Made by a program: the position numbers and the translations under genes. A DNA stretch of 61,099 nt, counting the filler. It is 4 parts of 4 records of this genome, joined end to end, with 100 filler letters (N's around TTAATTAATTAA, not from the genome) between each part and the next. Parts side by side here need not be neighbours in the genome. Positions count along the whole stretch, not along the records: positions 47,314 to 53,459 come from SRR20825019_2270; 3 more parts are not named here. One strand, given 5' to 3'. Shown here piece by piece: positions 29,364-61,099 of the stretch; the first letter of the stretch is position 1, and every line of letters begins with the position of its first letter. The notes below the pieces were generated by a model. It had not been told where the DNA came from. It did not search any database and saw nothing but the letters and a program-made list of their open reading frames with translations.

Positions 29364-31542
29364 TTAAGTGTAGATCCACACAACCAAGGGGATAGTAGCG
29401 ACCATCATGACAAGCTGCATCGGACCACCAAAGATAAGATAGTGCGAGAACCGGTAATTTCCCGGATTGAGCACCATCAGATTGGTTTGATACCCGATTG
29501 GAGTGGCGAAGGACGCCGATGCAGCGAACATAACAATATACAAGAATCCCTTATACGATTTGTCCACCTGCGCTGCAACGATATCCGCAATAGGCCACAC
29601 CAGGGTCACTGTAGCGTTGTTGCTAATGACACTTCCTAGGACCACCACAAGCACATATATTCCGGACATCTGCAAGAGATAATCCTTGCCCAACGCCTTC
29701 ACCAGACCGTCTGCCATGCTCTGCGCAATGCCAGTGGCCTTCATCGACTCTCCAATAGTGATTGTTGACGCAATCACAATAATCACGTTTCCCTTGACGG
29801 CCTTTAGTGCCTCGTCCACTGTCAAGCACTTGATCGCAATAAGAGCTCCGGCACAGAACGCCGCGGCGCAAAACAAGTCCAACTTTTCGAATGCCACAAC
29901 AATGACCATAACAATGAGCATGATAATGGATGCCCACAGTCGGAATATGTCCATTGCCTGATCATTCCGTGGTGGTTTGCTGTCTTCAACCTCAGAGATC
30001 AGAGCGAAATGGCGGGCATTACGATATGTCTGATAAAAGTTTGGGAAGGTCTCCACAAGGAGGGTATCCCCGACGGAAAATGTATGGTCCTTGATATCAT
30101 CTGCATGGCTACTGCCTTCCTCTGCCTGGCGCGACATTCTCCTAGCAATATCTCCTGACCGGACTGCCAATATGGCACCATTATACTCTGACCGGAACCT
30201 TGCTTCCCTGACCGTTTGGTTGACAAAGGAACAGTGCCGAGATATGACAACCTCGAACATACGCCGGTGCCTTCGGCGGGGACCAAGCTTGACGAGCTGG
30301 TTGTTCACGGGAACAAGGCCACGGAACTTGCGCAGGTCCCGAATACCGTTGGCTGTCGCTCCAAACCCTAAGATATCGCCGCTATGAAGCACGGTGCGGC
30401 GGTCCACGTCTTTGTAAGCCCCTTCCCTGTCGCATATGGAAAGAATAGATGCACCTTCTACCCTCATAAGACCTGTAGAGTCTACGGATTCCCTATGGAG
30501 GGAAGATCCAGTCTCAATGGTGAAAGTAATTTGGTACGCGTTCTCAGAAAGCTCTGAGTTGCTACTGCTGCTGCTGGATGGAAGGAGACAAGACGAAGCA
30601 ACAATCATATAAATCACGCCAACAACAAACAGAGGGATTCCGGCATAAGATAGCTCAAAAAAGCCAATTTTCAAGTCGTTATGATCCTTCTGAGCCAAAG
30701 TGATCGCCACAAGATTGGTGCTGCTCCCAATTAGAGTACACGTGCCGCCAAGCATTGAGACATAACTCTGCAAAGGGCACGTTAGCTCACTAAAACCACG
30801 GTCTTAATATATGCGAGGCACTCACCAGAGGGAGGAGTAGCTTGGAGGACGGGATACCAGAACGAGCTGACCACGACAATACCATAGGGATCATCATGGC
30901 AACAACTGGAGTGTTGTTCAAGAATGCCGACACAATACCAACAGGTATGAGCAGTCGGAGTTGCGCAGTCCATGTAAACCGCGGCGAACCAAGGACCATT
31001 CTCAGAAGTATTTCCATGCCACCGGACTCTTGCACTCCCCGCGCCACGATAAAGAGAACAGCAATAGCAAGCACGTTCTTGTCCGAATATCCTTGGAGGC
31101 CCACTTTTGGATCCACTACCTTGCAGGATATGAGAAGGACAGACGCACCAAAAAGGACTACCTCAGGAGGGTTATTGTCTACCAGCATAACAATGACAAA
31201 TACTAGAACAATGACCGTTATGTAGGCGTGGTATCGCTCACGGATATCCAGCCCAATCGCGAAGTGTGCAACCAAACTCAGTATAACACAAACGCACCAA
31301 AGGCAGGAATAGAGTAAATAACGGGATGAACAGAAGGCGAAAAAACGTGACTTTTTCTTCTTCCCTTGAAATTCGGTTTCGTCAACATCACTGAACTGTA
31401 CACGCCTAGCATTCTCAATATCATTCTCAGTGGACACTCCGAGTTCCACACTCTCGCGGCCAGTGGCATATTGAAATCTATTCCGAGGCTGCTCTGTTGA
31501 CCCTGCCGCAAAGTCTTCGAGGAGCGGCTCCTTGGAAGCCAT
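29364..31542 (-). CDS. SLC13-like / SLT (SAC1-like) anion permease with TrkA-C (RCK-C) domains, 2 exons
   Basis: SAFLNNTPVVAMMIP, PL(intron)SYVSMLGGTCTLIGSSTNL, central TrkA-C-like region (FRSEYNGAILAVR..GDTLLVE), and ASASFATPIGYQTNLMV. Confidence 0.88.
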
Positions 31543-32731
31543 CTCGAAACAATGTGGGCTTGCTGTCACAGAAACTGTAAACAGCTGGTATATATGGAGC
31601 TGCATAAAACCAAACCTGCAAGTTGCACAGCCAGTTCACCATCGCAGGCGGCACTCCGACAGTTGACCAGCACGTTGGAAGATGTCCGTTTGACCAGGAA
31701 CTGAAGGGGCCAGGCCGCGCGGGCCCGCCGGGCCGGCTGCCCACCCACCAGCACTCCGACCCCGCGGGCCCGAAGTTCATCGCGCCACCGCTGGAGGGCT
31801 CCGCCCCGGGCGGGCGCCGCGCCGGCAAGCCGCAAGATCGGGTACCCACCGGCACGCCCGGCACGGCCCCCTACTAGTAGGCCGGCCAGCCGGCCTGTGG
31901 ACCGGGACGGCCGGGCGTCAGCACGGGGGTCCGGCAGGCTGGCCTGGCCCGGCCGCCCGGGGCCTGACGCGGGGCGCCCGGCCAGCGCCCGGCGGGGGCC
32001 GCCCGGCCCCCGGCCCGGCCTGGCGAAGAGTGCCGAGGCGGTGGCGGGTCGGGCCGCTCCCCCTGCAGTGCGCGCACTGGCCAATTAGCCCATCTTCATG
32101 ACCCGGTCCGTCGCTCGCTACACTCCTACCAAAAGTGACCAAGCTTGCTGTCACTGCGGCACCGTGGTCCGCACACTGACAGTCACGCGTCGCCACCCCC
32201 GTGAGTGCCCCCGGCGGTGCCGGCGCAACGGCCGACCGCAGGCCGCCCGGCCCGCGACGGCCTCGGCCGGCCCGGCACTGGGCAGGCCGGGCCCGCACGG
32301 CGCTCATGCTCATCAGTGCCCTGATCGTGCAAGGTCGGTCCCTCAGCCAAATCAACAGTCCGCTCGATAATCATTGAATCAATTGATCAGTTGACAGTCG
32401 ACGGATTGCAACGCGTTGTGGACTTGGTCGAGCCGGAAGGCATTGCGAACGGATCGAATGGGCGGCCGCGCCGCGGGCCGGCAGCCGGGCCCGGGCCGGC
32501 CCCCCCGGGCCGGTGTGGGCCACACCCGTGCCGTCTCATGCCGCTGCCCCGCGGCGCCCCGGGGGCCCGGGCCCGGCCACCGCCGCTCGCGCCCGGGGCC
32601 CGTGAGTGCCGGCCGGGGCACTGGTGACCCTTGCTAGCACCCAGGTTTCGATCCGCCATTATGGCAGTGGTGGAAAGGGTTTAATGGTACATATACGTTG
32701 AGGATACCAAGTATGCAGAGGTTGTGCAGGG

Positions 32732-47313: not shown

Positions 47314-47340
47314 ATTTTCCGAAATTTCCCGGAAATTTTC
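47314..47340 (+). repeat. Left terminal inverted repeat of contig 3
   Basis: ATTTTCCGAAATTTCCCGGAAATTTTC matches the reverse complement of 53432-53458 (ATTTTCCGGAAATTCCCGGAAATTTTC) at 25/27 positions. Confidence 0.85.
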
Positions 47341-47583
47341 CCCAGAAATTTTCCCACAGGGTAAGATGTAATGTTTCTCCATAAATTTTTAAGTACAATG
47401 TATACGTTGCACACATGTAAACTCGTATGTACAAACTCGTATGTAACGTTTACGGTTACAGTATTGTATACAATGCATACTAATTTATACACATGGTGTG
47501 TATTAATACACCCGTATTACACGTTGCGGTTGTATACGGTACAACATATGGGAATAGTCCTGCATCCACCAGGCGGCCGTGTT

Positions 47584-50500
47584 ATACCTTTCCTTGTGTA
47601 CACGTAGTGTGAGTTTCTTGTGTAACACCAATAAAAAACGGGAAGTTTACAACCATACATATGTATACGTTAAAAGACAGGATCTGTCATCGGGATTTAT
47701 ACGAGGAACGTACTCGCACGATATCTATCATGCGCGCATTAGTGTGTAACGTTTTTATAGCTTACGTAAATCTTACAATATTAGAATAACCACGCGACTA
47801 TATAACTATACGGGTAATAATACACCTTTCCTACGTAAGGCACTACATGTATTAATAATACACATATTAAGCAAAGTAAAAAAAGAAAAATGTGTGATCC
47901 CTTATACAGCAAGTTTTACACGAACATGCTTACACGTATGTAGGACATAACATATACGTTTCACAGTAACTCTCAAGTCATAGTGTATTTACATGACGTT
48001 GAACTTACATGCACCTCTAAACGTACAACAGTCTGTTTAATACCATGTCATGTGCGTGTAACATACGTTGCATGTGCAGGTTGTTATACTTACACGGATT
48101 ATACGTTTTCGTTGGAAAGGTGTATCTATGTATGTTGTAGAACATACGTGTGGTATATTATAACCACACACAATTATGTTGTCCATGTGTATACAGACTA
48201 CACACGTTACGATACATCCCACATCATGTATTGTTACGTAGCCTACAATACGTTTAAGATGACACACACCTTTCCGGGTAAGTGTTGCATACTACCATGT
48301 GAGTCCTTCCGGACAAAAATTAATATAATATATAAACTATGGTACGTTAATGTGTACTGTGTACGGGCACATAACATATTTTAGTACAGTGGGCTGTTAC
48401 TTCTACATAGATAATTATTACCTTTCCAGGAATAACGTACATTCTTTCGGTGTGCGTAAGCATCCCCAAAGTGGAAGTGTTTCCTACAGGGATCACACCG
48501 TTACATGCACGGCATGCTTGGTGTAACAGTATTTACGTCCCGTAGGATTACGGAAGTTATTTGTGAAGTATTAATTACATTGCGTATAATAAAGTTCCTT
48601 ATATCTGTACGGTGTACTACTGTAGTTTTTTTTGTTGCAGACTACTTGTTGTAGGCATGTACTGGTTTACCCTGGAAAGGTGTACACAACGGGGCGTACC
48701 ACTAAAAATGTATGTTGAATGTGTATTAATATAATGCATATAGTAAAGTTAGTACTACTACCCAATATGTAAGTACACCTTTCCATTATAGTATTAAACA
48801 TAACGTAACACATCAAAATCCAACATAACAGATTAATTACGTATAGGAGCACACGTACACGCTACCCCAAAAATATCTCGCATACACCAAGTATGTAAAG
48901 TGCGTAGTAGTACACATACGCAAGGTTCGGGTAGTAACGCCGCGCACATCACGTAGACGAACCATGTATTGGTAATGTAAGCCTGGGTAGTTTAACAACT
49001 TACGTATACGTTTTAGTATGTGTTTTGCTGTAAACAATTCCGCGTAGGCACCGTACAGGAAAGGTGTATATCCTCCAGATATGACGCATTATGCTAGCGG
49101 AACGTGTATGCTCATAAACTCATACATTACCCCCGGGGAAGACCTACCCCTAGTAGTGTGTTATGTAACGGATCCTGTGCGGGAAGGATTATACGCGTTT
49201 TAACCTGGGTGAGGCCTAGTTATAAGAACATACTGTGCATGCAGCTGTGTACATACAGGACGGTGTAACGTATAGACACAACTGAGGTAATGTTATTAAC
49301 CACGTACACGGTCTACATTTTTTTTTTGTGTCCTTGTGAGTATACTTTTAAACCACCTTGAATGTATCATACGGAAAGGTGTACTACCCCTAGGTGTAAC
49401 GTAGTCCATATCAAGGTGGTTATCAAGTACATTAATTGATATACATATATGCTGCCGTTAACGATAAGCACTATACGAACGTAAGCTTACTTATGTACAC
49501 TACGGTTACTCTGCACTATTGAAGTACATCCCGTATACACATTTTTGTACGCTTACCTTTCCATATTTTTTTTGTGGTGTATTACATGTACAAAACATTA
49601 ACAACAATTTAAAAGTTTAGTACACCATGTTTAGATGACCTCGAGAATCGTACTATATGTGTGTACGTGGTACCGCTTTTTTACACGTCACGATATTAAC
49701 ATACCCCGGACACTTTATGAAAGCCGTAGGTCACGTATTTAATATTACACGTGTATAGGTATGGAGTGCAACTATTATGCCTGGAAATATATTTTTCTTT
49801 TTTTTTGTATTTTAACTAATGCTTATACACTACACATGTACAGTATGGAAAGGTGTGCTATGCACATAGCATGCCATGTATACACGGTATAGGTGTAACC
49901 CCGTGTGTATGTACTATATCCCGTCGTGCTTGAGTAAGTACAACCCTACCGCGTACTTTCTGTGTAAACGTCTATACACATTGTTTGTAATACACGAATT
50001 ATCTGTAGTACACAGTACACCTTTCCTGTGATGTTCATACCTATACGCAGTAATACAAACATACAAAAAAAATTCAACGGAACTTGTACATACGTAACAA
50101 CTTATCCGTAGTATACTACATGTGGTATAAACAAGCCATATCCCACCGGCATACGTTACTACCGTAATATATTAATATGTTACATTGTTTTTGTTGTATT
50201 AGCCCCGTAGTATAGTACAGTCCTACTATGGAAAGGTGTAATTCGTGTACGTGTACGTAACTATCCATCATATCCGGAATGTTACATATATTATGCATGG
50301 TATATTACTGTTTACAAGATGGTAATATGTTATTGCTATACTATATCCCGTTGTATACGTATCATACATACATTTCTCGGAAAGGTGTGCTAAGCCATAA
50401 CGTACGCACATAACCAGTGTGTACAAAATATATGTATAAACAGCAGTTGCTGATATTTTTAATAATGGGCTTTGTCTGGTAAGGACTTGTCTTACATATC

Positions 50501-53070
50501 ATATACACACCTTTCCTGGGGAGATACCCATTTGAGTAACAACTACATCAAACAAACAAAAAACGTATAAATTGTAAAGACATACTACCTATAACGCGTA
50601 GTTAGATTACACGCAACGGGGTATCGTACTGTAGTCACACATTGTCAGCTTTACACCTTTCCAGTGGTATGTACTTCCTGCAGTTAAATAACATACGATT
50701 ACTGGAACTGCGTAACATGTGTATACATAGTGCATACTACCCGGGAGAAGTTTTGCGTGCATGTACCGTAATGGATTGCTTTGGTTTGGTGTATGTAATA
50801 CATCCCGGTATATGTCAATCCTGGAAAGGTGTGTGAACGTTGTACGCATATAATGTATGCAGGTTAACACACGTATACATCTTTTTATACCGTTAGGTAC
50901 ACTTGTAGCATACAATTGTACACATACATACATCATACGCCCGCGCTGTGTGTCCATGTGAGTTGACGCTTACGTAAGTATTACCTGCGGTTACCTTTTC
51001 GGAAAGCTGGCTAGGCATGTATGTTATTAATGATCTTACGTACACATGCATGTGGTAAGTCATGTAAAAGTATGACCCCGTGGGAAACACCCCATCATGT
51101 ACACTGTAGTAGTTTATACATTGCCCGGTGCATGAGAATAAATACAACATGTTTTACTTTTTTGGGATTATATTGTATGCATACTAATTTTTAATGACAT
51201 ACTTTTTTTTAGGAGCGGTGTGATCAGGTAAACATCATATGTTTATATCTGGTATATACATTTGTTACGTACACTGTGCTTGCACGGCCTTGCATATGAT
51301 TATTTGGATACTGCATGTGGTATAACTATAGCTTAACAACGTACATGCAGGCAGGTAGTTGCCGCAGTACCGTATAAAACGTTTATATTCGTTAACATAC
51401 CCATACGTATAGGATGTGTAACACACGTGTTCTACCCGGGTAGTATACCCGTTTGTCTGGAGGTGTGTTCTTCCATTTTATTATTTGTGTAACAAGTAAT
51501 ACGCATACACTACATCCTGGAAAGGTGTGTACTATCTTGCATTATTTAAAAGCACAACTGCACGTGCAATATGCGACACAGTCCGGTAAGACCTACAACG
51601 TAACAACGTCGTGATCTTGTTCACTACGTGGTACGTGTTGTAGGTGTGTATAAATACGTACATTAATGCCGTACTATTATGTTTTCGCGTTTACGCCATG
51701 TCACGTAAGCGATATATTCCCCGTGTCGCGTAGTATAATATGAATCCCCGGGTACACCTTTCCATATTAAGTACGCGTGCTGTTTGTATACATAAATTTC
51801 AACAAACATAATAATAATAATATGAGATGCAACATATACCAAGCTCGTACAGGAATAACACGTCTGTTTAATACTTTGCGTTTACAGTTTGCTAACCCCC
51901 GTTGGTTTTATGTTGTACAACACGTATAAAATAGTACTTGTTGCTGTTACCTGGTTGGACGTGTATAAACTCGGAGAACCTACAGCGTCATACAACAACA
52001 TACACGTATCGGTAAGGCTGATGTTTTTTTACCTTGTAATGTTTGTGCGTGTTGGTACCGGGTGATGTTACGTCTTACGAAAGGGATGAGTTCGGTACTA
52101 TATAAGCCTACGGGTTGTGTATTGTAATCACATGTGTGCAACGTACATGTAATGCGAGCTTGTATGTATGGTTATTAATAAGATTATTATATGGGTATAC
52201 GTTCTCACGTAGGTTATCGTATTACCGTTTGATCTGCGTAGAACACACCTTCCCGCACGTGTAAATAGCAAGTCCCGAGTAGACTGTAACTGTACGCCTA
52301 TTATCCGAACACGTGTATCATACTAAAAAGGCACGTACTTGTTCCTCTCTATCTTTGCGGTTTAAATTAATACGTACAGTACGTCTTCCGGAAAGGTGCC
52401 TACTATATGTGTTGTATGCTGGCGGGTCACGTTAAGATAATATACCGGATAGAGCATACACAACATACTTGTATCGCCTGTGGCGGGAGGGTCGTGACCC
52501 CACACACCAAAACGTAACGTGGACATCGTCTGCGTTTGGTTTGTACGTACACGAGGTTTGCGTTATATTTTTTTTAAAATGTGCGTATACGTACATAATC
52601 AGAAACTACTATGGAAAGGTGTACATTATAATGCATTGTACTTCATCTACGTAAACCTTACTCATCAGTTAACGGTTACAATTAAATAACTACGTGTGTG
52701 TACGTTACATACATAGTGCTGTCGCACCTTTCCTATAATATTTATTTATAACAGCTAATATAAAAACCAAACACAATGCATTAATAATATTGTAAGGTTA
52801 TTGTTTATACATTGTAGTAACTTAACGTTTGCTACCCGCCCTACGCAATACGTATACCAGGCAGTTGTATATGTATACATGTATACACACGTGTTCTGTA
52901 TGTTTGACGGCTACTATATCCTCCTGTCAGATGTGTAGGATCACAAAATGCAGTGTCTTCTACCACGGACAACATCCAGTATGCATAAGCGTTATGCGCT
53001 GTGTGCTACTGGCGAGGATGGTATCTTATGTATATATGATGTGCGTACAATGTAAACTGTACACCTTTCC
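47584..53070. repeat. Dispersed bidirectional 10-mer GGAAAGGTGT/ACACCTTTCC (at least 18 exact and 5 near-exact copies)
   Basis: Plus strand: 48114, 48674, 49058, 49373, 49847, 50230, 50379, 50823, 51519, 52613. Minus strand: 47822, 48266, 48775, 50017, 50507, 50653, 51754, 53061. Variants keeping the GGAAAGGT core: 47584, 48418, 49553, 52390, 52724. Confidence 0.92.
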
Positions 53071-53431
53071 TATAGGATGTATTATAAGGCATACTATATG
53101 TAATGTAACATATTAAGCTACTATAAGTCGATGTATGTATCATTAAACGCAAGCGTATTATGATGTAATAAATGCGCATACATGCATAACATAAAGTTAA
53201 AGGTACATACCCGGTGCTGCGTACACCAAACAATATAATGCAGACATGTGTGGACAAACAATTGTGCTTAGGTATATAACATTATTACATAACGTACTGT
53301 TATACTAGTACAGCACTACACGTGTGTAATGTATATACAGATGTTACTGGGAAGGTTATACTCGTATGCGTTTAAAGTAAAAAAAATTTCATGTAATGTC
53401 GGTAAATGTGTAACGAGAAACTTTCCGACGA

Positions 53432-53458
53432 GAAAATTTCCGGGAATTTCCGGAAAAT
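53432..53458 (-). repeat. Right terminal inverted repeat of contig 3
   Basis: Inverted copy of 47314-47340 (25/27). Confidence 0.85.
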
Positions 53459-53459
53459 G

Positions 53460-53559: not shown

Positions 53560-53674
53560 GCATATCCAGCGGGTCTACGAAATGTGCGACCGCAACGTCT
53601 CCGAAACCGCCCGCCGCCTCAACATGCACCGCCGCACCCTGCAGCGCATTCTGGCAAAACGCGCACCCCGCTGA
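53560..53674 (+). CDS. regA: C-terminal HTH of the RegA/ActR/PrrA redox response regulator (partial)
   Basis: HIQRVYEMCDRNVSETARRLNMHRRTLQRILAKRAPR* is the highly conserved alphaproteobacterial RegA C-terminus. Confidence 0.93.
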
Positions 53675-53764
53675 CGAACCTTGGTGCGCGCCGCCAGCTT
53701 GAGGGCTTTGGGCGATGTCATGCTGGAGAAGAGGGCGACGCCGCACTGATGCGACAAGATGCGA

Positions 53765-54595
53765 TCAGGTGATCCGCTGAATGCTGGCCGCGATCTCTTC
53801 GGGTTCGAACACCTTCTTCCAGTCGTCGCGCATCAGGGCCGGCTTGCCGAATTCGATGGCCTTGTTGCAGGCATCGGAGAACTGGCCGCCCTTGACCTCG
53901 TCGAAGATGACGGCGCCGAGAATGTTCATGTGACCGAGCAGGAAGTCGCGGGCGCAATCATAGCTGACGCCGCGGGCGACCACCTCGTCCATGGCCTCGC
54001 GCATGACCACCAGCAGCGAGGCGCAGACCGTTTCCGAAAGGCCGGGTTCCAGGAGCGCCATCTGCTCGACGGTCACGCGATAGGTGCGGGCCACCGGGGC
54101 GTAGATCGCCCTGGCGATGGCATCGCCCAGCGCATAATGCTCATCAGGCCCCTGCATCAGCGCGTTGACCACGCCCTGTTCGGCGGCGACGCCACCGAAA
54201 TGGTCGTTGCGGCCGGCTTCGGTCGCCTCATTATTGAAGATCGGCGGATGGCAGGGATGCGAGACGAAATAGGTGATATCGTCACGTTCCGGCAGGTGGC
54301 CGGCAAACGGGGCCGCCGCATCGAGAATGACGACCATCGTGCCCGGCGCCAGATCCTTCACGAAGGTCGCGGCGACCTTGCCGATGACGGTGTCCGGCAC
54401 GGCGAGAATGACGACGTCCGCGCCGGAAAGCCCGGTCGCCGCGTCCACGGCGTCGACGCCCGCTTCGGATTTCAGCCGCGCCTTGCCCACGTCGCTGACC
54501 TCGATATGGCGAACCTCGAAATCGGTCTTCGCCAGATTGAGTGACAGGCGAACGCCCATTTTGCCGCCAGCGCCGAACAATGCGACTTTCGTCAT
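53765..54595 (-). CDS. apnO: D-apionate oxidoisomerase
   Basis: MTKVALFGAGGKMG Rossmann motif, LDAAAPFAG, HPCHPP, EQMALLEPGLSET and FSDACNKAI; GGAGG RBS; apiose cluster context. Confidence 0.85.
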   Translation of the reverse strand: MTKVALFGAGGKMGVRLSLNLAKTDFEVRHIEVSDVGKARLKSEAGVDAVDAATGLSGADVVILAVPDTVIGKVAATFVKDLAPGTMVVILDAAAPFAGHLPERDDITYFVSHPCHPPIFNNEATEAGRNDHFGGVAAEQGVVNALMQGPDEHYALGDAIARAIYAPVARTYRVTVEQMALLEPGLSETVCASLLVVMREAMDEVVARGVSYDCARDFLLGHMNILGAVIFDEVKGGQFSDACNKAIEFGKPALMRDDWKKVFEPEEIAASIQRIT

Positions 54596-54627
54596 TTTCA
54601 GTCTACCTCCCATTGGGTCATGCTTGT

Positions 54628-54648
54628 TTATCTGGTATGATCAGATAA
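54628..54648. promoter_or_regulatory. Palindromic FadR/GntR-type operator in the divergent apnO-oiaK spacer
   Basis: TTATCTG-GTATGAT-CAGATAA has perfect 7-bp arms, and the core resembles the FadR-family TCTGGT-N-ACCAGA box. A GntR/FadR gene lies in the cluster. Confidence 0.65.
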
Positions 54649-54711
54649 TATGTAGGTGATAATGTCAATCAATGATTGAACCAATTTTTGCAAGCAGGAG
54701 CGCATCACGGC

Positions 54712-56076
54712 ATGACAGGCAGCGCGAGGCCCAGACTGGCCTGGTTTGGGGATGATTTCACCGGCTCGGCTGCCGTCATGGAGGTGCTGGCATTCGCCGG
54801 ACTGAACGCGGTGCTGTTTTCGGATGTGCCGAGCGCAGCACTTGCCGAACGCTTCGCCAATGCCGATGCGCTCGGCATCGCCTCCACCGCCCGCAGCCAC
54901 TCCCCGGCGTGGATGGCGGCCAACCTGCCGGCGCCGCTCGCCTGGCTCGATGCCACCGGGGCGGAAATCCTGCACTACAAGATCTGCTCGACCTTCGATT
55001 CCTCGCCGAGCGCGGGCAATATCGGCCGCGCCATCGAGATCGCGCTCGAAATCCGCGGCTCGCAGGCGGTCCCGCTGGTGACCGCGGCCCCGCAAATGCG
55101 CCGCTACCAATCCTTCGGCCACCTTTATGCCGGTATCTTCGAAGGCGTGTTCCGCCTCGATCGCCACCCCGTGATGGCCCGTCATCCGGTAACCCCGATG
55201 GACGAGGCCGACCTGCTGCGCCACCTCGCCCGCCAGACCGACCTTGCCTCCGCGCTGATCGATCTCGAGGCGCTGTGGTCCGGTGCCGCGCCCCAGGCAC
55301 TTGACGAAGTCATTGCCGCCGGCGCGCGGATCGTCTCGCTCGACGACATGGAGCCCGTCAGCGAACTGGCCGTCGGCCGGCTGATCTGGGAAAACCGCGA
55401 CCGGCTCCGGCTTGCCGTCGGCTCGCAGGGCCTCGAATATGCGCTGGTGCGACACTGGCAGGAGACCGGCGAGATCGCCGCGCCGCCGCCGCCGAAAAGC
55501 GCGGGGCCAGTGGCGCAGATCGCCGCGATCTCCGGTTCCGTCTCGCCGAGCACGTCCCGCCAGATCGCGTGGTCAGCGGCCAACGGCTTTGAAATCATCG
55601 GTTTCGATGCGGCAAGCGTGGTTGGCGACGCGCTGGCGTTCGAAGCCGAGATCGCCCGCGCGACCCGTTCGGCGCTGGAAGCGCTTTCGACCGGGGCCAG
55701 TGTTCTGGTGACGTCTGCCGCAGGGCCCGACGACCCGCGCGTTGCCGCCTTCAGGGCAGCGCTTTCGGGTTCATCGCTCGATTTCGAAACCGCCAATGCC
55801 CGCATCGGACAGGCGCTCGGTCGTGTTCTTGACCAGATCCTTCGGCAATCCGGCCTCGGCCGCGCCGTCATCTCGGGCGGCGATACCTCCGGCCACGGCA
55901 TGCGCGCGCTCGGCATCGAGGCGCTCACGGCCCTGGCGCCGACGATCCCGGGTGCTGCGCTCTGCTTGGGCCACAGCGAAGGCCGCCATGACGGGCTTCA
56001 GATCGCGCTGAAGGGCGGGCAGATGGGGTCTGAGGACTTTTTCGGCTGGATCCGCGAGGGCGGCGGACCGCGATAG
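54712..56076 (+). CDS. oiaK: Four-carbon acid sugar kinase family (DUF1537), probable 3-oxo-isoapionate kinase
   Basis: GDDFTGS, HYKICSTFDSSP, RLDRHPVMARHPVTPM, GGDTSG and LKGGQMG; AGGAG RBS. Confidence 0.82.
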   Translation: MTGSARPRLAWFGDDFTGSAAVMEVLAFAGLNAVLFSDVPSAALAERFANADALGIASTARSHSPAWMAANLPAPLAWLDATGAEILHYKICSTFDSSPSAGNIGRAIEIALEIRGSQAVPLVTAAPQMRRYQSFGHLYAGIFEGVFRLDRHPVMARHPVTPMDEADLLRHLARQTDLASALIDLEALWSGAAPQALDEVIAAGARIVSLDDMEPVSELAVGRLIWENRDRLRLAVGSQGLEYALVRHWQETGEIAAPPPPKSAGPVAQIAAISGSVSPSTSRQIAWSAANGFEIIGFDAASVVGDALAFEAEIARATRSALEALSTGASVLVTSAAGPDDPRVAAFRAALSGSSLDFETANARIGQALGRVLDQILRQSGLGRAVISGGDTSGHGMRALGIEALTALAPTIPGAALCLGHSEGRHDGLQIALKGGQMGSEDFFGWIREGGGPR

Positions 56077-56080
56077 CCGC

Positions 56081-56797
56081 TCAGCTCTTCATCTGAAACA
56101 CGTCGCGGGTGCGCTCAAGGTGATGGCGCATTTCCTCGATTGCGCCTTCAACGTCATGATCGGCGATGTGATCGACGATCTTGTCGTGCTCGGCCAGCGT
56201 CAGTTCCTCGCCGCCGGAGCGGTGCAGCAGGCTGACGTGATATTCGAACAGCCAGCCGAGCATGGCATCCGAGACCGAAACGATGATCGGGTTATCGGTG
56301 AGCGAGGCGATCTTGCGGTGGAATTTCATGTCCGTGCCGATAAAGGCAATCGCATCGCCGAGCTGGCTGCGCTGCAGCGCCACGAGATCGCGAAGCTCGG
56401 CGACATCGGCGTCGCTCGCCGTTTCGGCCGCCACCCGCACCATGCCGAGCTCGAACATCTGGCGGGCGTGCTTGAGATGATCGAGATTGGCGGGCGCCGC
56501 ACTCAGAACCAGCCGGGCAAGCTCGTCGGACTGGGTCAGGATCGTCGCCGGGTTGATCTCCTTCACCCGCGAGCGCTCGCCGTGATTGATGGTGATCAGG
56601 CCGCTGTTGTGCAGCGATTGCAGCGCCTCGCGCACCGCCGGCCGGCCCACGCCGAAGCGTTCCATCAGGCTGCGCTCGGAGGGCATGTAATCGCCGGGCT
56701 TCAGCTCGCCGCTGCGGATCATGTCATGCATCCGCTCCAGCACCTGGTCGGACAGCTTGCGTCGAACGATCCTGTCGCCTGCCTGTACCCTGCTCAT
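56081..56797 (-). CDS. GntR/FadR-family transcriptional regulator (NanR-like)
   Basis: wHTH PSERSLMERFGVGRPAVREAL and an FCD domain (DMKFHRKIA, EHDKI..AI..HL). Confidence 0.93.
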   Translation of the reverse strand: MSRVQAGDRIVRRKLSDQVLERMHDMIRSGELKPGDYMPSERSLMERFGVGRPAVREALQSLHNSGLITINHGERSRVKEINPATILTQSDELARLVLSAAPANLDHLKHARQMFELGMVRVAAETASDADVAELRDLVALQRSQLGDAIAFIGTDMKFHRKIASLTDNPIIVSVSDAMLGWLFEYHVSLLHRSGGEELTLAEHDKIVDHIADHDVEGAIEEMRHHLERTRDVFQMKS

Positions 56798-56921
56798 TGC
56801 GCGCTGCTCTCCGGTGTTGTCATGTCAAAACGATAAGGCCTTCCCGGCAATTAGTTGAGTCCCCCTACGGCCACATTTGGCCTTATACCCAGCTCCGCGC
56901 GTCTGGCCGGCCAAAATCGCG

Positions 56922-58655
56922 TCAACGCCAGTCGAAAGGCGGCAGCCCGGAAAGCGTACGGTCCGTGAGGTTTGCCGCAAACTCGTGGCCGTCCTCGAAT
57001 GCGAGCCTGGCCGTTCCATTGCCGATCCTTGCGCTGACTACCGCTTTTCCGGCACATCCGGCAAGCGATTCCAGAACCATCGCAAGCGGCGAGGGCGTTC
57101 CATCGTCGCAAAAAAGCCCGCGCGGGCCGTAAAGCGCGGCCGGCGTCCAGACCGCCACGTCGAACGGCGCCAGCGCTGTTGCAAGCCCCAGCGCATAGGC
57201 CGCGCCGAAGGCTGCGAAATGGCGCGGGTCGAAATCGGCCATGCAGACCCGGCCGCGCTGCGGATTGGGAATGGTGCGCGCGCCATAGGGGTTTTGCCGC
57301 ATGGCGATTGTCGCGGGTCCGATGCGATAGGCGCGATCGCCGAGGAGCACTCTGGCCGAGCGGGCAATATGCGGGATCGTCTCCAGCGTCTCCAGCACCG
57401 AGATATCGTCTGCCGCATGCACGATCGGGCAGAGGCCGTGGGTGACGAAATCGAGGTGATCGAGCGGCGGGCGCTTGCGGTTCAGCTCCGGAAAGAAGCT
57501 CGCCATGCCGCCGCCGCGCGCGACATCGGGGAAAGCCCGGGCCGCAGCCGCATGGATTTCCGCCAGCGGCGGGCAGGGCGGCCACTCGGAACCGGGCGGG
57601 GTCGACTGGCGGTCGACCGAGGGACAGACGAAAACCGAGGCTGGAACCAGACCTGCGGCCGCCACCGCAGCGGCGTGGGCCGAAAGCTCGTCCGCCGGGC
57701 TGTCGTCGCCGTCGAAACGACAGATCAGCTCGAGATCATAGGCCGGCTGCGGCAGTACCGCCTGAAGCGCGGCAAAGGCTGCGATCTGCGGTCCGGCCGG
57801 TTCCGCCGCGGCATCGACATGGCAGAGCAGCCGTTGGGGGCTGACGATATCGAAGTCTTCGCGGTTGGCGGCAAGCCGCAGCGCATCGCCGGCCGTCAGC
57901 ACCAGCGCCGTCTCGGGAAACCGGGCCATCGGCAAAGTGCCGGTGGTGGCAGACAGCACGGCCGTGGCATCCGCCTTCCACGTAATCTCGACGGATTGCG
58001 ACAGGGTTTCGCCGTCGCCGATTTCATAGGGCCATGGCAGCGCCAGCGGGCGGTTATAGGTCTTGAACGAGGCATCGCCCCATTGCCGCTGGTCCTCCAT
58101 CTCGAAGACATCGCCGGAAAAGGCGGTGCGCACCGCAAAACCGTTGGCGCGGTGCTCCAGCGCCGCAATATCCATGAACGGTTGCCAGGGCTCGATCAGC
58201 GCCGGAAACGACCCGTCCTCGATGCTGCCGTCGGCATGGGTGACCCGGGCCGGTGCCCCGGCAACGCCTTCGATCGGGTGAAGCACGGTAAACCCGGCAC
58301 GGTTGGTTTCGAAAGTCCCGGTGACGCGGCCCCCGGCCTCCACAATCAGTCGGTCGGCTGCAAGCGTCACCCTTATGGCGACATCGAGCCGCGCATCGCC
58401 CGACCGGAACACCATCGGGATCGACAGCCGCAGGGCATCGCCGTCCTCGCGGATGATGGTCCCGATCTCGGGCACGATCGTGCCCCAGTCGCGATCACGC
58501 GCCAGAAAGGCGACCGAGCGCATGATTTCCGTTCCCCGGAAGGTCAGGTGACGGAGCGCGCCGTCCTGCAGCGTCACCGCCACATCGCCGTTAACCAACC
58601 GCTCGGAGGCCGCCGGCTTCTGGCTGGTGCCGTAGAGGGAAACGGGATCGCTCAC
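56922..58655 (-). CDS. apnL: D-apionate lactonase
   Basis: RDRDWGT, TNRAGFTVLHP, FEMEDQRQWGDASFKTYNRPL, FPELNRKRPP, PIVHAADD and MRQNPYG; overlaps the apsD stop (translational coupling). Confidence 0.83.
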   Translation of the reverse strand: MSDPVSLYGTSQKPAASERLVNGDVAVTLQDGALRHLTFRGTEIMRSVAFLARDRDWGTIVPEIGTIIREDGDALRLSIPMVFRSGDARLDVAIRVTLAADRLIVEAGGRVTGTFETNRAGFTVLHPIEGVAGAPARVTHADGSIEDGSFPALIEPWQPFMDIAALEHRANGFAVRTAFSGDVFEMEDQRQWGDASFKTYNRPLALPWPYEIGDGETLSQSVEITWKADATAVLSATTGTLPMARFPETALVLTAGDALRLAANREDFDIVSPQRLLCHVDAAAEPAGPQIAAFAALQAVLPQPAYDLELICRFDGDDSPADELSAHAAAVAAAGLVPASVFVCPSVDRQSTPPGSEWPPCPPLAEIHAAAARAFPDVARGGGMASFFPELNRKRPPLDHLDFVTHGLCPIVHAADDISVLETLETIPHIARSARVLLGDRAYRIGPATIAMRQNPYGARTIPNPQRGRVCMADFDPRHFAAFGAAYALGLATALAPFDVAVWTPAALYGPRGLFCDDGTPSPLAMVLESLAGCAGKAVVSARIGNGTARLAFEDGHEFAANLTDRTLSGLPPFDWR

Positions 58656-59671
58656 AATTCCTCCAGCGCGACGGTGCGCCCTTCGGCTGCGGAAAGATAG
58701 GCCGCCTCGACCAGCGCGAATGTGTTGAGATTATCGGCGCCGGCGGTTTCGGGGACGCGGCCCTCGCGCAGGCAATCGACGAAATGGCGCTGGATGATGG
58801 CGACGCTTTCCTGAATGTTGTGCCAGGGCCGCTCCGCCCACGAAAGCACCGGGGGCGCGACATCGCGGGTCTCGTTGCCGCCGCCGGCCTGGATCGTGAG
58901 ACGATACCCCGCATCGAGCCTCAGCGTGCCTTCCGTGCCGTCAATCTCGAGCAACGTCTGCGGAAATGTCTCCGGTTCGCGTTTCGTGGCATAGGAACAG
59001 TCGACCACGCTGGTGACCCCGTCGTTATGAACCAGAAGCATGGTCGCGACATCCTCGCCGTTGATCTTCGGATTGACGCGTCTGGTGCTGGCGGTGATCG
59101 TGGAGACTTCTCCGAACAGCGCACGGGCGATATCGAGAATATGAATGCCCAGATCCTCGATGATGAAGCGCTTGCCCTCGGCAAGATAGGGCTGACCGGC
59201 ATAGACGTCGTACCCGGAGCGGAAACTGACGCGACCAAAGAATGGCGTGCCGATCGCGCCCGATCGCAGCGCATCGATCGCCGCGCGCACCGCCGATTGC
59301 CAGCGGAAATTCTCGTGCACCATCAAAACCTTGCCGGCGCTCTCGGCGGCCGCGACCATGGCGCGGGCGTCGCCCATGTTTTCGGCAAACGGCTTCTGGC
59401 AGATGATATCGACGCCGGCTTTCGCGGCGGCCTCCACAAGCGGGCGATGCGACGGCGCGGTGGTGGCGATATCGACGAAATCGAAACCGCCATCGGCAAA
59501 CATTTCGCCGGCATCGCTGTAGCGCCGTTCGATGCCGAAAAGATCGCCCGTCTCGGCGAGCCGCCCGGCATCGCGATCGCACAGCGCCACGATCTCGACC
59601 CCGTCGAGATCGTTCCAGGCGTGGAGCTGATTGCGGGCGAAGAAGCCGCAGCCGATGAGAGCGCCCTTCAT
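58652..59671 (-). CDS. apsD: Gfo/Idh/MocA oxidoreductase, probable D-apiose dehydrogenase
   Basis: IGCGFFA, ICQKP, MVHENFRWQ, IIEDLGIHILD and PWHNIQESV; context beside apnL. Confidence 0.82.
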   Translation of the reverse strand: MKGALIGCGFFARNQLHAWNDLDGVEIVALCDRDAGRLAETGDLFGIERRYSDAGEMFADGGFDFVDIATTAPSHRPLVEAAAKAGVDIICQKPFAENMGDARAMVAAAESAGKVLMVHENFRWQSAVRAAIDALRSGAIGTPFFGRVSFRSGYDVYAGQPYLAEGKRFIIEDLGIHILDIARALFGEVSTITASTRRVNPKINGEDVATMLLVHNDGVTSVVDCSYATKREPETFPQTLLEIDGTEGTLRLDAGYRLTIQAGGGNETRDVAPPVLSWAERPWHNIQESVAIIQRHFVDCLREGRVPETAGADNLNTFALVEAAYLSAAEGRTVALEEL

Positions 59672-59701
59672 GAAAACCTCTTCCTATTTACCGACACTTT
59701 T

Positions 59702-60763
59702 TTACTTGCCGACAGCGGCCTGCGCCTGCAGCGCGACCCGTGCCTGAACCCGCTGCTGGGCCTGATCGATGACGACGGCGGCGATGATCACCACACCCTT
59801 GATCACGGTCTGCCAGAAGGCAGAGACGCCCATCATCACCAGCCCGTCGGAGAGCACGCCGATGACGAAGGCGCCGATGATGGTGCCGCCGATCCTGCCG
59901 CGCCCGCCCGACATCGAGGTTCCGCCAAGGACGGCTGCCGCAATCGCGTTCAGCTCGAAAGTATCGCCGGTTGCCGGGTGAGCCGCAACAAGCTGGGAGG
60001 AAATAATGATGCCGACCAGCGCCGCGCAGAAGCCCGAGAACATGTAGACGAAATATTTGACGTGGGTGACCTTCACGCCCGAAAGCCCCGCCGCCCGCTC
60101 ATTGCCGCCGACGGCATAGATGAACCGGCCAAGCGGCGTGCGCCTGGCGATATAGGCGGCGAGAAGCCCGACGGCGATAAGCATCCAGATCGAGATCGGG
60201 ATACCGAGGAAAGAGCCCGTGCCGATGAGGCGATAGCTGGCAGAACCGTATTCGGCGCTGCCGGTGAGATTGGGAAAGGTTTCGCCCTCGCTCGACAGCA
60301 TCGCGGCGCCACGGGCGATATAGAGCGTTCCGAGCGTTGCGATGAACGGGGCGACGTTGAGCTTGGTGATCAGGAAGCCGTTGAGCGCACCGATGGCGAT
60401 GCCGACCAGCGCGACAATCAGGCAGATTTCCAGCGTGTTGAACTGCACCGTCCAGCCGATGCCGAGATCGATGCCGTTCAAAAGCAGGTAGCCGGCGACC
60501 ATGCCGCACAGGCCGACGATCGATCCGACCGAAAGGTCGATGCCGCCGGAGATGATCACGAAGGTCATCCCGATCGCGAGAAACGCGTTCAGCGCCACAT
60601 GTTTCGACATGATCACGAAATTCGCCGTCGACAGGAAGTTCGGCGCGAAGATCGCGAAGAAAACGAACACCAGGATCAGCGCGATGAAGGTTCTGGCCTT
60701 CATCAGCATCAGCAATGCGCTGCTCGGGGCCTGCCCGACGCCGTTTGCGGTCATATCAGTCAT
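59702..60763 (-). CDS. Sugar ABC transporter permease (RbsC family), probably apiose uptake
   Basis: GGIDLSVGS, PFIATLG, YAVGGNERAAGLSG and ELNAIAAAVLGGTS. Confidence 0.93.
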   Translation of the reverse strand: MTDMTANGVGQAPSSALLMLMKARTFIALILVFVFFAIFAPNFLSTANFVIMSKHVALNAFLAIGMTFVIISGGIDLSVGSIVGLCGMVAGYLLLNGIDLGIGWTVQFNTLEICLIVALVGIAIGALNGFLITKLNVAPFIATLGTLYIARGAAMLSSEGETFPNLTGSAEYGSASYRLIGTGSFLGIPISIWMLIAVGLLAAYIARRTPLGRFIYAVGGNERAAGLSGVKVTHVKYFVYMFSGFCAALVGIIISSQLVAAHPATGDTFELNAIAAAVLGGTSMSGGRGRIGGTIIGAFVIGVLSDGLVMMGVSAFWQTVIKGVVIIAAVVIDQAQQRVQARVALQAQAAVGK

Positions 60764-61099
60764 TATGCGGTCTTCCTGTTCAACTGATCGGCGTCCGGGT
60801 TGTGGCCCGCGGCGGATGCCTGGACGAGCTTGGTGTCGGTCGCCTCGCTGCGATCGAATGTTCCGGTGATCCGGCCGTTCGACATCACGATGATCCGGTC
60901 CGAAAGGCTCAGCACTTCCTCCAGGTCCGACGTGACGAAGACGATGCCGAGCCCTTCGGCGGCAAGCTGGCGCATGACGCGGAACACCTCGGCCTTGGCG
61001 CCGATATCGATGCCGCGCGAGGGTTCGTCCATCAACAGCACCCTGGGGCCGGTCATCAGCGCCTTGGAAATCACCACCTTCTGCTGGTTGCCGCCCGAC
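60763..61099 (-). CDS. Sugar ABC transporter ATP-binding protein (RbsA family), C-terminal part
   Basis: SGGNQQKVVI, LLMDEPSRGIDIGAK and TSDLEE; the TAA stop overlaps the permease ATG; runs off the window. Confidence 0.92.
   Translation of the reverse strand, partial: SGGNQQKVVISKALMTGPRVLLMDEPSRGIDIGAKAEVFRVMRQLAAEGLGIVFVTSDLEEVLSLSDRIIVMSNGRITGTFDRSEATDTKLVQASAAGHNPDADQLNRKTA

Follow-up and report, generated by a model that had tools for sequence, protein, structure and literature searches.

Genes for guide RNAs (gRNAs) are generally carried on molecules that combine a common conserved region containing A-tracts with a variable region (PMC12936278). For Trypanoplasma borreli, the passages cited here describe gRNA-bearing kDNA as ‘ScaI-flanked contigs’ in which arrays of terminal repeats in inverse orientation enclose a unique inner part; contig coverage varies by a factor of five, both strands carry gRNA loci with no pattern, each locus has a conserved 9-mer at a distance of 20–40 bp, and gRNA and mRNA match over a median of 28 bp (PMC9679448). 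Trypanosomatid minicircles, as summarized in the cited part of a review, are circles of 0.7–2 kb with 1–5 gRNAs and CSB-1 to CSB-3; they occur in many sequence classes with unequal copy numbers, and a conserved repeat lies at a fixed distance from the gene, e.g., in T. brucei, where 18-mer inverted repeats enclose the cassettes (PMC12936278). In Perkinsela kDNA, a tract rich in A or A/C lies close to putative gRNA genes, and edited mRNAs contain T7–T9 runs followed by G (PMC4669381, in the part cited).

Common chromosome ends are also described for Amoebidium parasiticum, whose several hundred chromosomes all bear inverted terminal repeats and are identical in their subterminal sequences; there and in medusozoan linear mtDNA, the genes on the chromosomes are ordinary mitochondrial ones and are transcribed from one end (PMC2518934, sections cited). 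Diplonemid mitochondrial chromosomes are multipartite, high-copy circles of a 6–7 kb class, mostly a constant region plus one short unique cassette, in which a large share of the DNA is non-coding and the expressed pieces are short (PMC7049700, likewise in part). Our best reading of the contig described here matches it most closely to the linear gRNA contigs of T. borreli, but it is ten times smaller and denser.

Results

The analysed window, i.e., the whole stretch of 61,099 nt, consists of four contigs separated by spacers of the form N44-TTAATTAATTAA-N44, and the contig studied is the third (47314–53459, 6,146 nt). Its GC content is 0.379 vs 0.583, 0.534 and 0.646 in the other three, which bears out the divergent composition reported in the first-pass annotation. 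The dinucleotide odds were 1.6 for AC/GT, 1.37 for TA (0.65–0.69 in contigs 1 and 2), 1.24 for CG, 0.5 for GA/TC and 0.66 for AG/CT. The bulk of the contig alternates purine and pyrimidine, with GA/AG depleted to 0.5–0.65.

The inverted ends noted in the first pass were found as two arms of 27 nt each (47314–47340 and 53432–53458; 25/27 identical, 93% complementary). These 27 nt are just the inner edge of an extended terminal array that other molecules also have: the left 42 nt (47314–47355) have 0–4 mismatches to the ends of other 6.3–9.4 kb contigs, past 47355 seven contigs of run X1 diverge in sequence, and 53423–53459 was matched at the ends of a 9,357-bp (X2) and an 8,635-bp (X4) contig.

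The contig had been called gene-less. As far as proteins are concerned this held, also under seven stop-codon sets. Stop-to-stop translation with table 4 gave 23 ORFs of at least 70 codons (longest, 146 codons), all rich in Y/T/C/V/H, and in the translation check with the seven sets the longest frames lay within the range of 100 dinucleotide shuffles, bar one nominal case (1/100 vs shuffles), which was without a Pfam match. None of the longest 60 of 157 ORFs (at least 55 codons; ~19.7 kb) from seven family members reached the Pfam cut-off, and Rfam and tRNA searches of the third contig returned no match. In the relevant sense, however, the label is probably wrong, because the contig carries ~22 conserved units of ~65 nt (Table 1).

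Table 1. Terminal repeats and repeated units of the third contig. Strands given for units are those with GGAAAGGTGT in 5′ to 3′ direction; the candidate RNA starting with ACACCTTTCC is on the opposite strand.
Feature	Position	Strand	Remarks
Left terminal repeat	47314..47355	+	Inner edge of A/T-tract array common to other molecules
Unit 1	47584..47648	-	10-mer variant GGAAAGGTAT; 1 listed difference from X4 homologue
Unit 2	47822..47886	-	+ strand: ACACCTTTCC, spacer, then A7 tract; 0/39 listed X4 differences in 47821-47885
Unit 3	48059..48123	+	
Unit 4	48266..48330	-	
Unit 5	48619..48683	+	T8 run upstream of 10-mer
Unit 6	48775..48839	-	
Unit 7	49003..49067	+	
Unit 8	49318..49382	+	T10 run
Probable degenerate unit	49553..49617	-	GGAAAGGTAA, 2 mismatches; tract T 0.56, C 0.04
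Unit 9	49792..49856	+	T9 run; tract T 0.74
Unit 10	50017..50081	-	A8 on + strand
Unit 11	50175..50239	+	
Unit 12	50324..50388	+	
Unit 13	50507..50571	-	
Unit 14	50653..50717	-	
Unit 15	50768..50832	+	
Unit 16	51464..51528	+	
Unit 17	51754..51818	-	
Unit 18	52245..52309	-	Variant GGGAAGGTGT
Unit 19	52335..52399	+	Variant ending GTGC
Unit 20	52558..52622	+	T8 run
Unit 21	52724..52788	-	Variant ending GTGC
Unit 22	53061..53125	-	
Right terminal repeat	53418..53459	-	Inverted orientation; 27-nt arm 53432-53458

The units are directional, lie on both strands and follow each other at roughly one per 280 bp. Each has the order ACACCTTTCC, ~28 unit-specific nt and an A/C-rich tract of ~20–28 nt, often with an A8–10 run; the complement of this tract is T/G-rich and resembles edited mRNA. 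Searches with GGAAAGGTG found 21 copies in the window, 20 of them within the third contig, vs on average 0.46, and never more than 2, in 100 dinucleotide shuffles. Allowing one mismatch, GGAAAGGTGT had 22 copies in the third contig, 11 per strand. In 17,482 nt, 59 occurrences of GGAAAGGTGT on either strand were counted vs 0.07 expected.

Aligned on 64 copies, T accounted for 55–69% of positions −53 to −38, and C for 6% in the bin −40 to −31. A run of at least six T ending 35–49 nt (median 40) before the 10-mer was present in 21/65 units, vs 3.4% of 5,000 control positions. A T8–10+GT run at such a near-fixed distance could be a signal, not guide information. The best T/G-rich segment had median bounds of −51 and −29, and the T/G tract lay above the control 95th percentile in only 14/63 units.

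Two small comparisons addressed the divergence of the units. Among the 39 listed differences from the X4 homologue, 2 fell in 133 nt inside units and 37 in 574 nt outside (p = 0.02), and the palindrome arms of contig L069 differed at 2 positions in ~73 nt of unit and at ~20 in 175 nt outside (p = 0.03). In both, the units changed less than the intervening DNA. Folding gave mean z values of −0.38 and −0.07 for the two strands and −0.16 for controls; the absence of a secondary-structure signal relative to controls is the behaviour to be expected of unstructured guides. At the purine/pyrimidine level, overlap between the window contig and the ocean contigs or among 63 units did not go beyond shuffles, and redundant or orthologous guides were therefore not seen in this small sample.

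The window contig belongs to a family of small, abundant DNA molecules that have their end sequences in common. An identical 6,146-bp contig is found in the public runs X1 (depth 232) and X2 (54.5) and is present in pieces in X3 (8.5), the identical sequence occurring under three organism labels of one study. Nine other long contigs (8,737/8,736/8,739, 7,278, 6,313, 9,357, 8,023, 7,607 and 8,635 bp) contain the terminal 30–42 nt no farther than 55 nt from an end of their own. Relative to the 6,146-bp contig, the 8.7-kb contig had a depth of 4.8x in X1, 3.0x in X2 and 11.3x in X3. In X4, a 6,939-bp homologue is ~94% identical end to end, with about 760 extra bases just left of unit 19. A metagenome scan yielded 77 loci, of which six are relatives, all from one ocean assembly (GC 0.37–0.39, 7–10 motif copies per 2–3 kb, GA/TC 0.5–0.6, AC/GT 1.5). 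According to BLASTN, the terminal array is all that these ocean contigs have in common, be it among themselves or with the window contig, and their interiors are unrelated.

The termini of the family are truly inverted: an asymmetric 30-mer adjoining the body has the same inward polarity at a left end (L009) and at right ends (L028, L057, L061, L064 and L069). A-tract spacing peaks at 12 and 10 bp without a clean helical phase. Two ocean contigs traverse the ~200-nt A/T-tract array and continue into a further common ~150 nt; the window contig therefore stops at a shared repeat met by the assembler, the point at which assemblies break, and has no observed physical end there. The suggestion of a break at a repeat was correct for both ends. 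That of a complete linear molecule fits the family if the contig is taken as one of many repeat-capped molecules of a fragmented, probably organellar genome, but complete it is not, since its ends are overrun by other contigs. In four runs, contigs never pass from the ends into ordinary unique DNA; all end or become tangled in the array. Family interiors are unrelated and no contig has flanking host DNA, so that the transposon or satellite also considered in the first pass does not hold.

Discussion

The observation of a contig bounded by inverted repeats is confirmed, and its earlier interpretation is partly supported. As far as checked, it still corresponds to no described element, the nearest being the gRNA-bearing kDNA of T. 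borreli (PMC9679448, in the sections cited; PMC12936278, Table 2). Both have a unique interior, inverted terminal arrays common to all molecules, several-fold coverage differences and numerous small loci that occupy both strands in no positional order; a short motif lies 20–40 bp from each locus there and 28 nt here, match or tract lengths are ~28 nt there and ~20–28 nt here, and in both the molecules may be linear or circular. In contrast, the molecules here measure 6–9.4 kb plus termini (~70 kb there), with one unit per 280–300 bp (about one per 3 kb there) and the 10-mer GGAAAGGTGT/ACACCTTTCC instead of RYAGGCTTT; the terminal units here are A/T-tract repeats of 10–15 nt with no clear CSB-3 copy, and the units here are candidate gRNA genes.

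With minicircles the family shares a conserved A-tract region next to a variable one, a conserved repeat at a fixed distance and unequal copy numbers of many classes, but it differs in its 6–10 kb size, inverted ends, about 22 units, the lack of an exact CSB-3 and its composition, which is not rich in purines (PMC12936278, part cited). The T/G tracts resemble the edited Perkinsela mRNAs, and the A/C-rich tracts have their counterpart there too, whereas Perkinsela gRNA contigs average 730 bp and, in the passages cited, no common flanking motif is reported (PMC4669381). The multipartite, high-copy 6–7 kb class, the large non-coding share and the short, here putative, expressed pieces recall diplonemids, but nearly the whole body is unique here and only the ends are common (PMC7049700, in part).

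Together with the family, its inverted termini and the architecture and constraint of the units, these comparisons point, tentatively and with somewhat less than an even chance, to a guide-RNA-type carrier of a kinetoplast-like mitochondrial genome. Several observations count against it. The molecules are linked to a kinetoplastid by neither an edited mRNA nor a small RNA or host sequence, and the eukaryotic contigs of the record look non-kinetoplastid, with genes on both strands and a Tudor-SN at most 40% identical to anything. The CSB-3 12-mer had no exact copy; near matches (at most 2 edits) numbered about 8 vs 1.4 in mononucleotide shuffles, and the common region covered comprised only ~350 nt. 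The GA/AG depletion and purine/pyrimidine alternation are unlike purine-rich gRNA genes, and G makes up only ~6% of the presumed guiding tract; for T. borreli, the G/U-pair value in a review table is 0.11 (PMC12936278, part cited). The few units with a T/G tract beyond the control 95th percentile, the purine/pyrimidine-level overlap no greater than in shuffles, the near-fixed position of the T8–10+GT runs and the A-tract spacing weigh in the same direction.

The strongest competitor, which we regard as unlikely though well worth keeping in mind, is a mini-chromosome of a multipartite, probably mitochondrial and possibly linear organellar genome of a non-kinetoplastid protist, for which the orphan eukaryote of contigs 1 and 2 would be one candidate owner. 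The shared inverted ends would then be telomere or replication modules as in Amoebidium and medusozoan mtDNA, and the bipartite element a promoter, terminator, origin signal or mark of other small RNAs. Common inverted termini, unrelated interiors and unequal depths are exactly as described for Amoebidium (PMC2518934, sections cited), the eukaryotic contigs represent a lineage without close protein-database relatives (best identity 40%), and the T-rich tract plus 10-mer would make a plausible upstream-element-plus-core promoter. Against a mini-chromosome, none of the 60 longest ORFs from seven members reached the Pfam level, the window contig gave no Rfam or tRNA match, and ~22 promoters without any gene would be odd on a genome chromosome. 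The Amoebidium and medusozoan chromosomes carry ordinary mitochondrial genes, none of which is seen here, and, in the passages cited, no dense bipartite motif (PMC2518934). The identical sequence under three organism labels would mean that the labelled organisms are one strain. The unit-specific spacer is also less divergent than its surroundings, a constraint not required of an element that is purely a DNA signal.

Selfish plasmid-like replicons that lack genes, reside in the mitochondrion or cytoplasm, depend in trans on host or helper functions for their maintenance and use the repeated element as a binding or priming site would explain the high copy number, uneven between members and cultures, the absent coding capacity and the common termini. 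We consider them improbable: the interiors are long, unique and unrelated between members, the 94% homologue is preserved end to end in another sample and divergence is lower in the units than in the spacers separating them, which suggests information content rather than filler. The passages cited here describe no family of gene-less linear plasmids. A nuclear repeat, be it a non-autonomous TIR transposon (MITE-like), a subtelomeric element or germline-limited DNA, would have inverted ends and no ORF as well, but is very improbable, given that transposon copies share their interior and these members do not, that contigs in four runs never leave the ends into ordinary unique DNA, that two independent assemblies yield the same 6,146-bp contig and that its composition differs from that of the nuclear contigs. 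Least credible is a viral origin, as a virus satellite or one segment of a multipartite DNA virus, which would suit the 6–9 kb size class, common termini and high depth, but about 19.7 kb of the family lacks a recognisable ORF and pattern scans of a viral contig collection found no member.

The contig is best read as the unique part, or ‘variable region’, of a single member of a high-copy family of molecules of ~6–10 kb, all of which end in the same inverted A/T-tract arrays where assemblers stop. If it is a guide-RNA carrier, each unit would be transcribed as a gene for a short, unstructured guide-type RNA, with the 10-mer as promoter or processing signal at a fixed distance, and mitochondrial mRNA rich in U/G (edited by uridine insertion) would be the pairing partner of its A/C-rich part. 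We infer that the molecules may reside in the mitochondrion of a kinetoplastid-type euglenozoan, which would be their owner in the non-axenic protist culture and in marine samples.

A contig of unusual composition without recognizable genes

The third contig of the window (6,146 nt; GC 0.379; hereafter the window contig) was described in the first-pass annotation as unlike the other three in composition, and the dinucleotide odds agree: AC/GT 1.6, GA/TC 0.5 and AG/CT 0.66, along with TA 1.37 and CG 1.24, the latter two measured on this contig only. Purines and pyrimidines alternate in 63% of its steps. The bias in AC/GT (~1.5–1.6) and GA/TC (~0.5–0.6) is common to the window contig and six related loci from one ocean metagenome assembly (L009, L028, L057, L061, L064 and L069).

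The lack of any protein-like ORF, claimed from the sequence at first sight, held up on closer analysis. The longest stop-to-stop frame under translation table 4 has 146 codons and is, like all 23 table 4 ORFs of at least 70 codons, of a compositional type. Alternative genetic codes had also been suggested as a check. Seven stop-codon sets were compared with 100 dinucleotide shuffles; frame lengths stayed within the shuffle range with one exception, “TAA read as sense”, which was the only set to reach 1/100 (341 codons). Pfam searches of three frames read with TAA as sense, this 341-codon frame included, gave no hit. Of 157 ORFs of at least 55 codons in the window contig and its six relatives, the 60 longest were searched as well, and none passed the curated cut-off (best E-value 0.0029). 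Searches for tRNA and tmRNA genes found none, no Rfam family matched at its gathering score anywhere in the window, and at E-values up to 5 the window contig yielded only one chance-level miRNA hit (E 3.4).

Coordinates of the features discussed, in the window or in the ocean loci
Sequence	Position	Strand	Feature
Window	7961-11995	+	One open frame of 1,344 codons: aminotransferase class I/II (residues 114-476) and PAP2 phosphatase (residues 1053-1179)
Window	29364-31605	-	CitMHS-type transporter in two adjacent ORFs (30790-31605 and 29364-30773)
Window	47314-53459		Window contig
Window	47360-48066		Part compared with the sediment homologue for unit divergence
Window	near 52335		Place of ~760 extra bases in the sediment homologue
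Window	53560-61099		Contig 4
L028	2135-2266		Distal segment beyond the terminal array
L069	2010-2710		Palindrome of ~700 bp inside the terminal array
L069	2890-3011		Distal segment beyond the terminal array

A family of molecules with shared inverted ends

The sequence occurs in four public runs, three of them from one study (X1, X2 and X3) and carrying three organism labels (word shares 1.00, 1.00 and 0.92), the fourth a sediment metagenome (X4; word share 0.14). An identical 6,146-bp contig was present in X1 (depth 232) and X2 (54.5), and X3 contained it in pieces (8.5). The inverted repeats reported for its ends are real, with 27-nt arms that are 93% complementary. The terminal 30–42 nt recur with 0–4 mismatches, at most 55 nt from an own end, in nine other long contigs of the four runs (8,737/8,736/8,739, 7,278, 6,313, 9,357, 8,023, 7,607 and 8,635 bp). 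At the same terminal place many high-depth contigs of 33–60 nt are tangled, and 9 to 17 contigs per run reach past the ends of the stretch. The ends of the window contig are assembly breaks at an array that other contigs share and continue beyond. This is the option, raised in the first-pass annotation, of a sequence broken by the assembler at a repeat, and it displaces the option of a complete linear molecule. Copy number differs between molecules: the depth of the 8.7-kb contig was 4.8, 3.0 and 11.3 times that of the window contig in the three cultures.

The homologue in the sediment run measures 6,939 bp and is ~94% identical over its full length. Substitutions between the two comprise 233 transitions, 95 A:T<->C:G changes, only 3 A:T<->T:A and 4 C:G<->G:C, a lopsided spectrum that may be of the oxidative-damage type. 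A metagenome scan with an 18-nt pattern derived from the common loose ends returned 77 loci, six of which, all from one ocean assembly (contigs of 6.2–8.0 kb plus one of 1.9 kb), have the family signature: GC 0.37–0.39, 7–10 motif copies per 2–3 kb and the same dinucleotide bias as the window contig. According to BLASTN, these ocean contigs and the window contig have just the terminal array in common, and their interiors are unrelated. A search for contigs with the same terminus and different interiors had been proposed along with the initial description, and such contigs were found both in the four runs and as the six ocean contigs. Pattern scans of prokaryote genome contigs (0 hits; 96 loci) revealed none with the family signature.

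An asymmetric 30-mer adjoining the body points inward at one left end (L009) as well as at five right ends; therefore, the ends are truly inverted and do not represent a broken direct repeat. The terminal arrays contain A3-5/T2-4 tracts at a spacing of 10–15.5 nt, and their periodogram peaks at 12 and 10 bp (power 17 and 10, compared with at most 1.9 for body DNA), with a clean 10-bp period in short array stretches only. In two ocean contigs, ~200 nt of array are followed by a further shared ~150 nt of other composition. These distal segments are 87% alike and enclose a small hairpin-like inverted repeat; they stop within 20 nt of each other, and this common stop could be a physical end or another repeat edge. 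Altogether, the window contig belongs to a multi-molecule, high-copy family whose members have a “conserved region” in common at their inverted ends but each a “variable region” of its own.

A directional unit with a constant 10-mer

A constant 10-mer occurs 59 times in 17.5 kb of family DNA, where 0.07 copies are expected. The copies lie on either strand, on average ~296 bp apart, and show no polarity over the length of the molecule. In the window contig, GGAAAGGTG has 20 copies vs 0.46 expected, and allowing up to one mismatch there are 22 copies of the 10-mer, 11 per strand. A directional, two-part unit has the 10-mer as its constant end. Among 64 aligned copies, T accounts for 55–69% at positions -53 to -38 upstream of GGAAAGGTGT, and C for 6% in the -40..-31 bin upstream of the 10-mer; the best T/G-rich segment per unit has median bounds of -51..-29. 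Runs of at least six Ts were found in 21 of 65 units (at least eight in 11) vs 3.4% of control positions, and in the 21 run-bearing units the run ends 35–49 nt (median 40) before the 10-mer, often with GT next. Between tract and 10-mer lies a ~28-nt stretch of ordinary composition that is specific to the unit, which makes the 10-mer a conserved motif at a fixed distance from the T/G-rich tract in the 64 aligned copies. On the opposite strand the order is ACACCTTTCC, the unit-specific ~28 nt and an A/C-rich tract.

The units appear to be under constraint. In the part of the window contig compared with the sediment homologue, 2 differences fell into 133 nt of units vs 37 into 574 nt outside (p=0.02), a test resting on 39 differences (40 of the 335 overall were listed). 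The two arms of a palindrome in L069 differ at 2 positions in a ~73-nt unit vs ~20 in the remaining 175 nt (p=0.03). In both comparisons the sample is small, and the limits of the units were set with the data already in view. The ~760 extra bases of the sediment homologue lie between two units, and therefore molecules appear to gain or lose blocks of units. The L069 palindrome, with arms of ~290 nt that are ~92% alike, holds in each arm one inward-facing unit plus a near copy of CSB-3, one deletion off, and is possibly an origin-like module.

No folding signal was detected in the units, and the idea of a structured RNA was rejected on this account. A Shine-Dalgarno function was rejected as well: an ATG lies within 15 nt in 27 of 67 motifs vs 33% of controls, and the ORFs have a median of 11 codons. 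At the purine/pyrimidine level, neither the overlap between the window contig and the ocean contigs nor that among 63 units went beyond shuffles, in tests that covered ~65 units, probably a small part of the full set. On the mRNA-like strand, frames were open in 88% vs 84% of controls, an uninformative difference.

Neighbouring contigs and the source culture

The window was built from four contigs with N44-TTAATTAATTAA-N44 as spacers. Contigs 1 and 2 (GC 0.58 and 0.53) are eukaryotic, and their genes, located on both strands and some of them split, encode Tudor-SN, an arginine-kinase-type phosphagen kinase, a two-domain AAA ATPase, IML1, a CRT-like transporter and a CDC14-like phosphatase. The top identity of the Tudor-SN protein was 40% (763 hits, E ≤ 1e-30); therefore, the eukaryote of contigs 1 and 2 is without a close sequenced relative. 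The 1,344-codon frame represents a fusion protein or else read-through across two genes, and the division of the CitMHS-type transporter is due to either an intron or a frameshift. Contig 4 (GC 0.65) has a separate dinucleotide signature and is bacterial, with genes for a GntR/FCD regulator, a branched-chain amino-acid ABC permease, a GFO/IDH/MocA oxidoreductase and a four-carbon acid sugar kinase-type protein. Thus, with eukaryotic and bacterial contigs side by side, the record is the assembly of a non-axenic (mixed) protist culture.

Resemblance to guide-RNA-bearing kinetoplast DNA

We tentatively read the window contig as a guide-RNA (gRNA) carrier of a kinetoplast-like mitochondrial genome, with a confidence somewhat short of even. 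Each unit would encode a putative guide-type RNA, short and unstructured. The 10-mer, at its fixed distance, would be the signal for promotion or processing, and pairing with U/G-rich RNA would involve the A/C-rich part. In its make-up (U ~55–69%, G ~23%, A ~17%, C ~6%), the tract complement resembles uridine-insertion-edited mitochondrial mRNA; edited mRNAs of Perkinsela are similar in style, with T7-T9 runs followed by G (PMC4669381). One ocean-contig unit agrees over 16 nt with a segment of the Perkinsela cyb mRNA; this identity, found by eye, was discarded as being, on a rough estimate, about what chance yields for T/G-rich sequence.

By analogy, the overall architecture of the family matches that of the gRNA-bearing kDNA of Trypanoplasma borreli. 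For the latter, the published description reports a unique inner sequence between inversely oriented terminal repeat arrays, fivefold coverage differences among gRNA molecules, gRNA loci on both strands without a pattern, a conserved 9-mer 20–40 bp from each locus and a median guide:mRNA match of 28 bp (PMC9679448). Unique interiors, inverted terminal arrays and unequal coverage of molecules are likewise features of the window family. Unlike T. borreli (~70 kb, ~23 loci per contig, RYAGGCTTT), it has contigs of 6.1–9.4 kb, of which the 6.1-kb one contains 22 units, and its motif is another one, a 10-mer. More generally, gRNA molecules combine a shared conserved region containing A-tracts with a variable region, as outlined in a review (PMC12936278); the window family resembles kinetoplastid gRNA-bearing kDNA, as portrayed there, in its common region plus unique variable region and in the motif at a fixed distance from each candidate gene.

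The identical sequence under three organism labels of one study would be explained by a single additional organism present in all three cultures. The use of a bacterivorous kinetoplastid as food in cultures of predatory protists has been documented (PMC7859406).

Several observations argue against gRNA genes. The eukaryotic contigs of the record do not look like those of a kinetoplastid. The 12-nt CSB-3 block has no exact copy in the ~350 nt of shared region but ~8 places within two edits vs 1.4 in shuffles, the best being those in both arms of the L069 palindrome. GA/AG is depleted in the bulk DNA, G is scarce in the presumed guiding tract, and the T/G tract exceeds the 95th percentile of controls in only 14 of 63 units. 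Redundant guides were not seen among the units compared, and the T8-10+GT run at a near-fixed distance may constitute a signal rather than information.

Alternative origins

Unlikely, yet the strongest competitor, is a mini-chromosome from the multipartite organellar genome of a non-kinetoplastid protist, similar to that of Amoebidium (PMC2518934), with the unit as promoter or origin. The Amoebidium-type multipartite linear mtDNA and the window family both comprise many molecules with shared inverted terminal repeats. Amoebidium-type chromosomes carry standard mitochondrial genes; the window contig and ~13.5 kb of sequence from its six relatives yielded none. The window family differs from the mitochondrial chromosomes of diplonemids, which are described as mostly constant with one short unique cassette (PMC7049700), whereas here almost all of the 6.1-kb body is unique and only the ends are shared.

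That the owner is the orphan eukaryote of the record or another non-euglenozoan protist, with an independently evolved and so far undescribed organellar guide-like system, we regard as improbable. It would then possess tens of mini-chromosomes with shared inverted ends of curved DNA, and among them these would encode guide-like RNAs of ~60 nt by the hundreds, all bearing a constant handle of 10 nt.

Molecules devoid of genes could also form a selfish, plasmid-like family, an explanation that we consider quite improbable. For a nuclear transposon or repeat the likelihood is very low: unlike in MITEs or non-autonomous TIR transposons, the interiors are unrelated, and flanking unique DNA was not seen on any contig of the four runs. 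Virus segments deserve hardly any credence, given that there are no ORFs and that pattern scans of a viral contig collection detected no family member. A synthetic spike-in or artefact is ruled out by the 94% homologue and the diverged environmental relatives.

Possible implications for guide-RNA genome organization

A table in a 2026 review lists gRNA-bearing molecules as circles of 0.7–2 kb, circles of 15–22 kb and linear molecules of ~70 kb, and contains nothing like molecules of 6–10 kb with ~20 loci each (PMC12936278). Provided that the guide reading holds, the window family is a new variant among gRNA-bearing molecules. Literature searches with the motif strings returned, among the matches listed, only papers on unrelated subjects and none on organelle or kinetoplast DNA, and no kDNA description was found for two bodonid species. 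To our knowledge, almost no kDNA has been described from the free-living marine lineage of the presumed owner.

In practical terms, contigs like these should not be discarded from protist assemblies as junk or contamination on the criterion “no ORF, odd GC”. If the units are guide-RNA genes, they would represent a new packaging of guide RNAs, in molecules of 6–10 kb with inverted A/T-tract ends and ~20 genes each, intermediate in size between minicircles of 1 kb and the T. borreli molecules of 70 kb. Thanks to the 10-mer at its fixed distance, every guide gene could be located from DNA alone and, if the guide reading is true, the whole guide repertoire would be readable from metagenomes. Should the owner instead be a non-kinetoplastid, the system would be categorically new: guide-RNA-driven RNA processing outside Kinetoplastea would imply a second origin and come as a major surprise.
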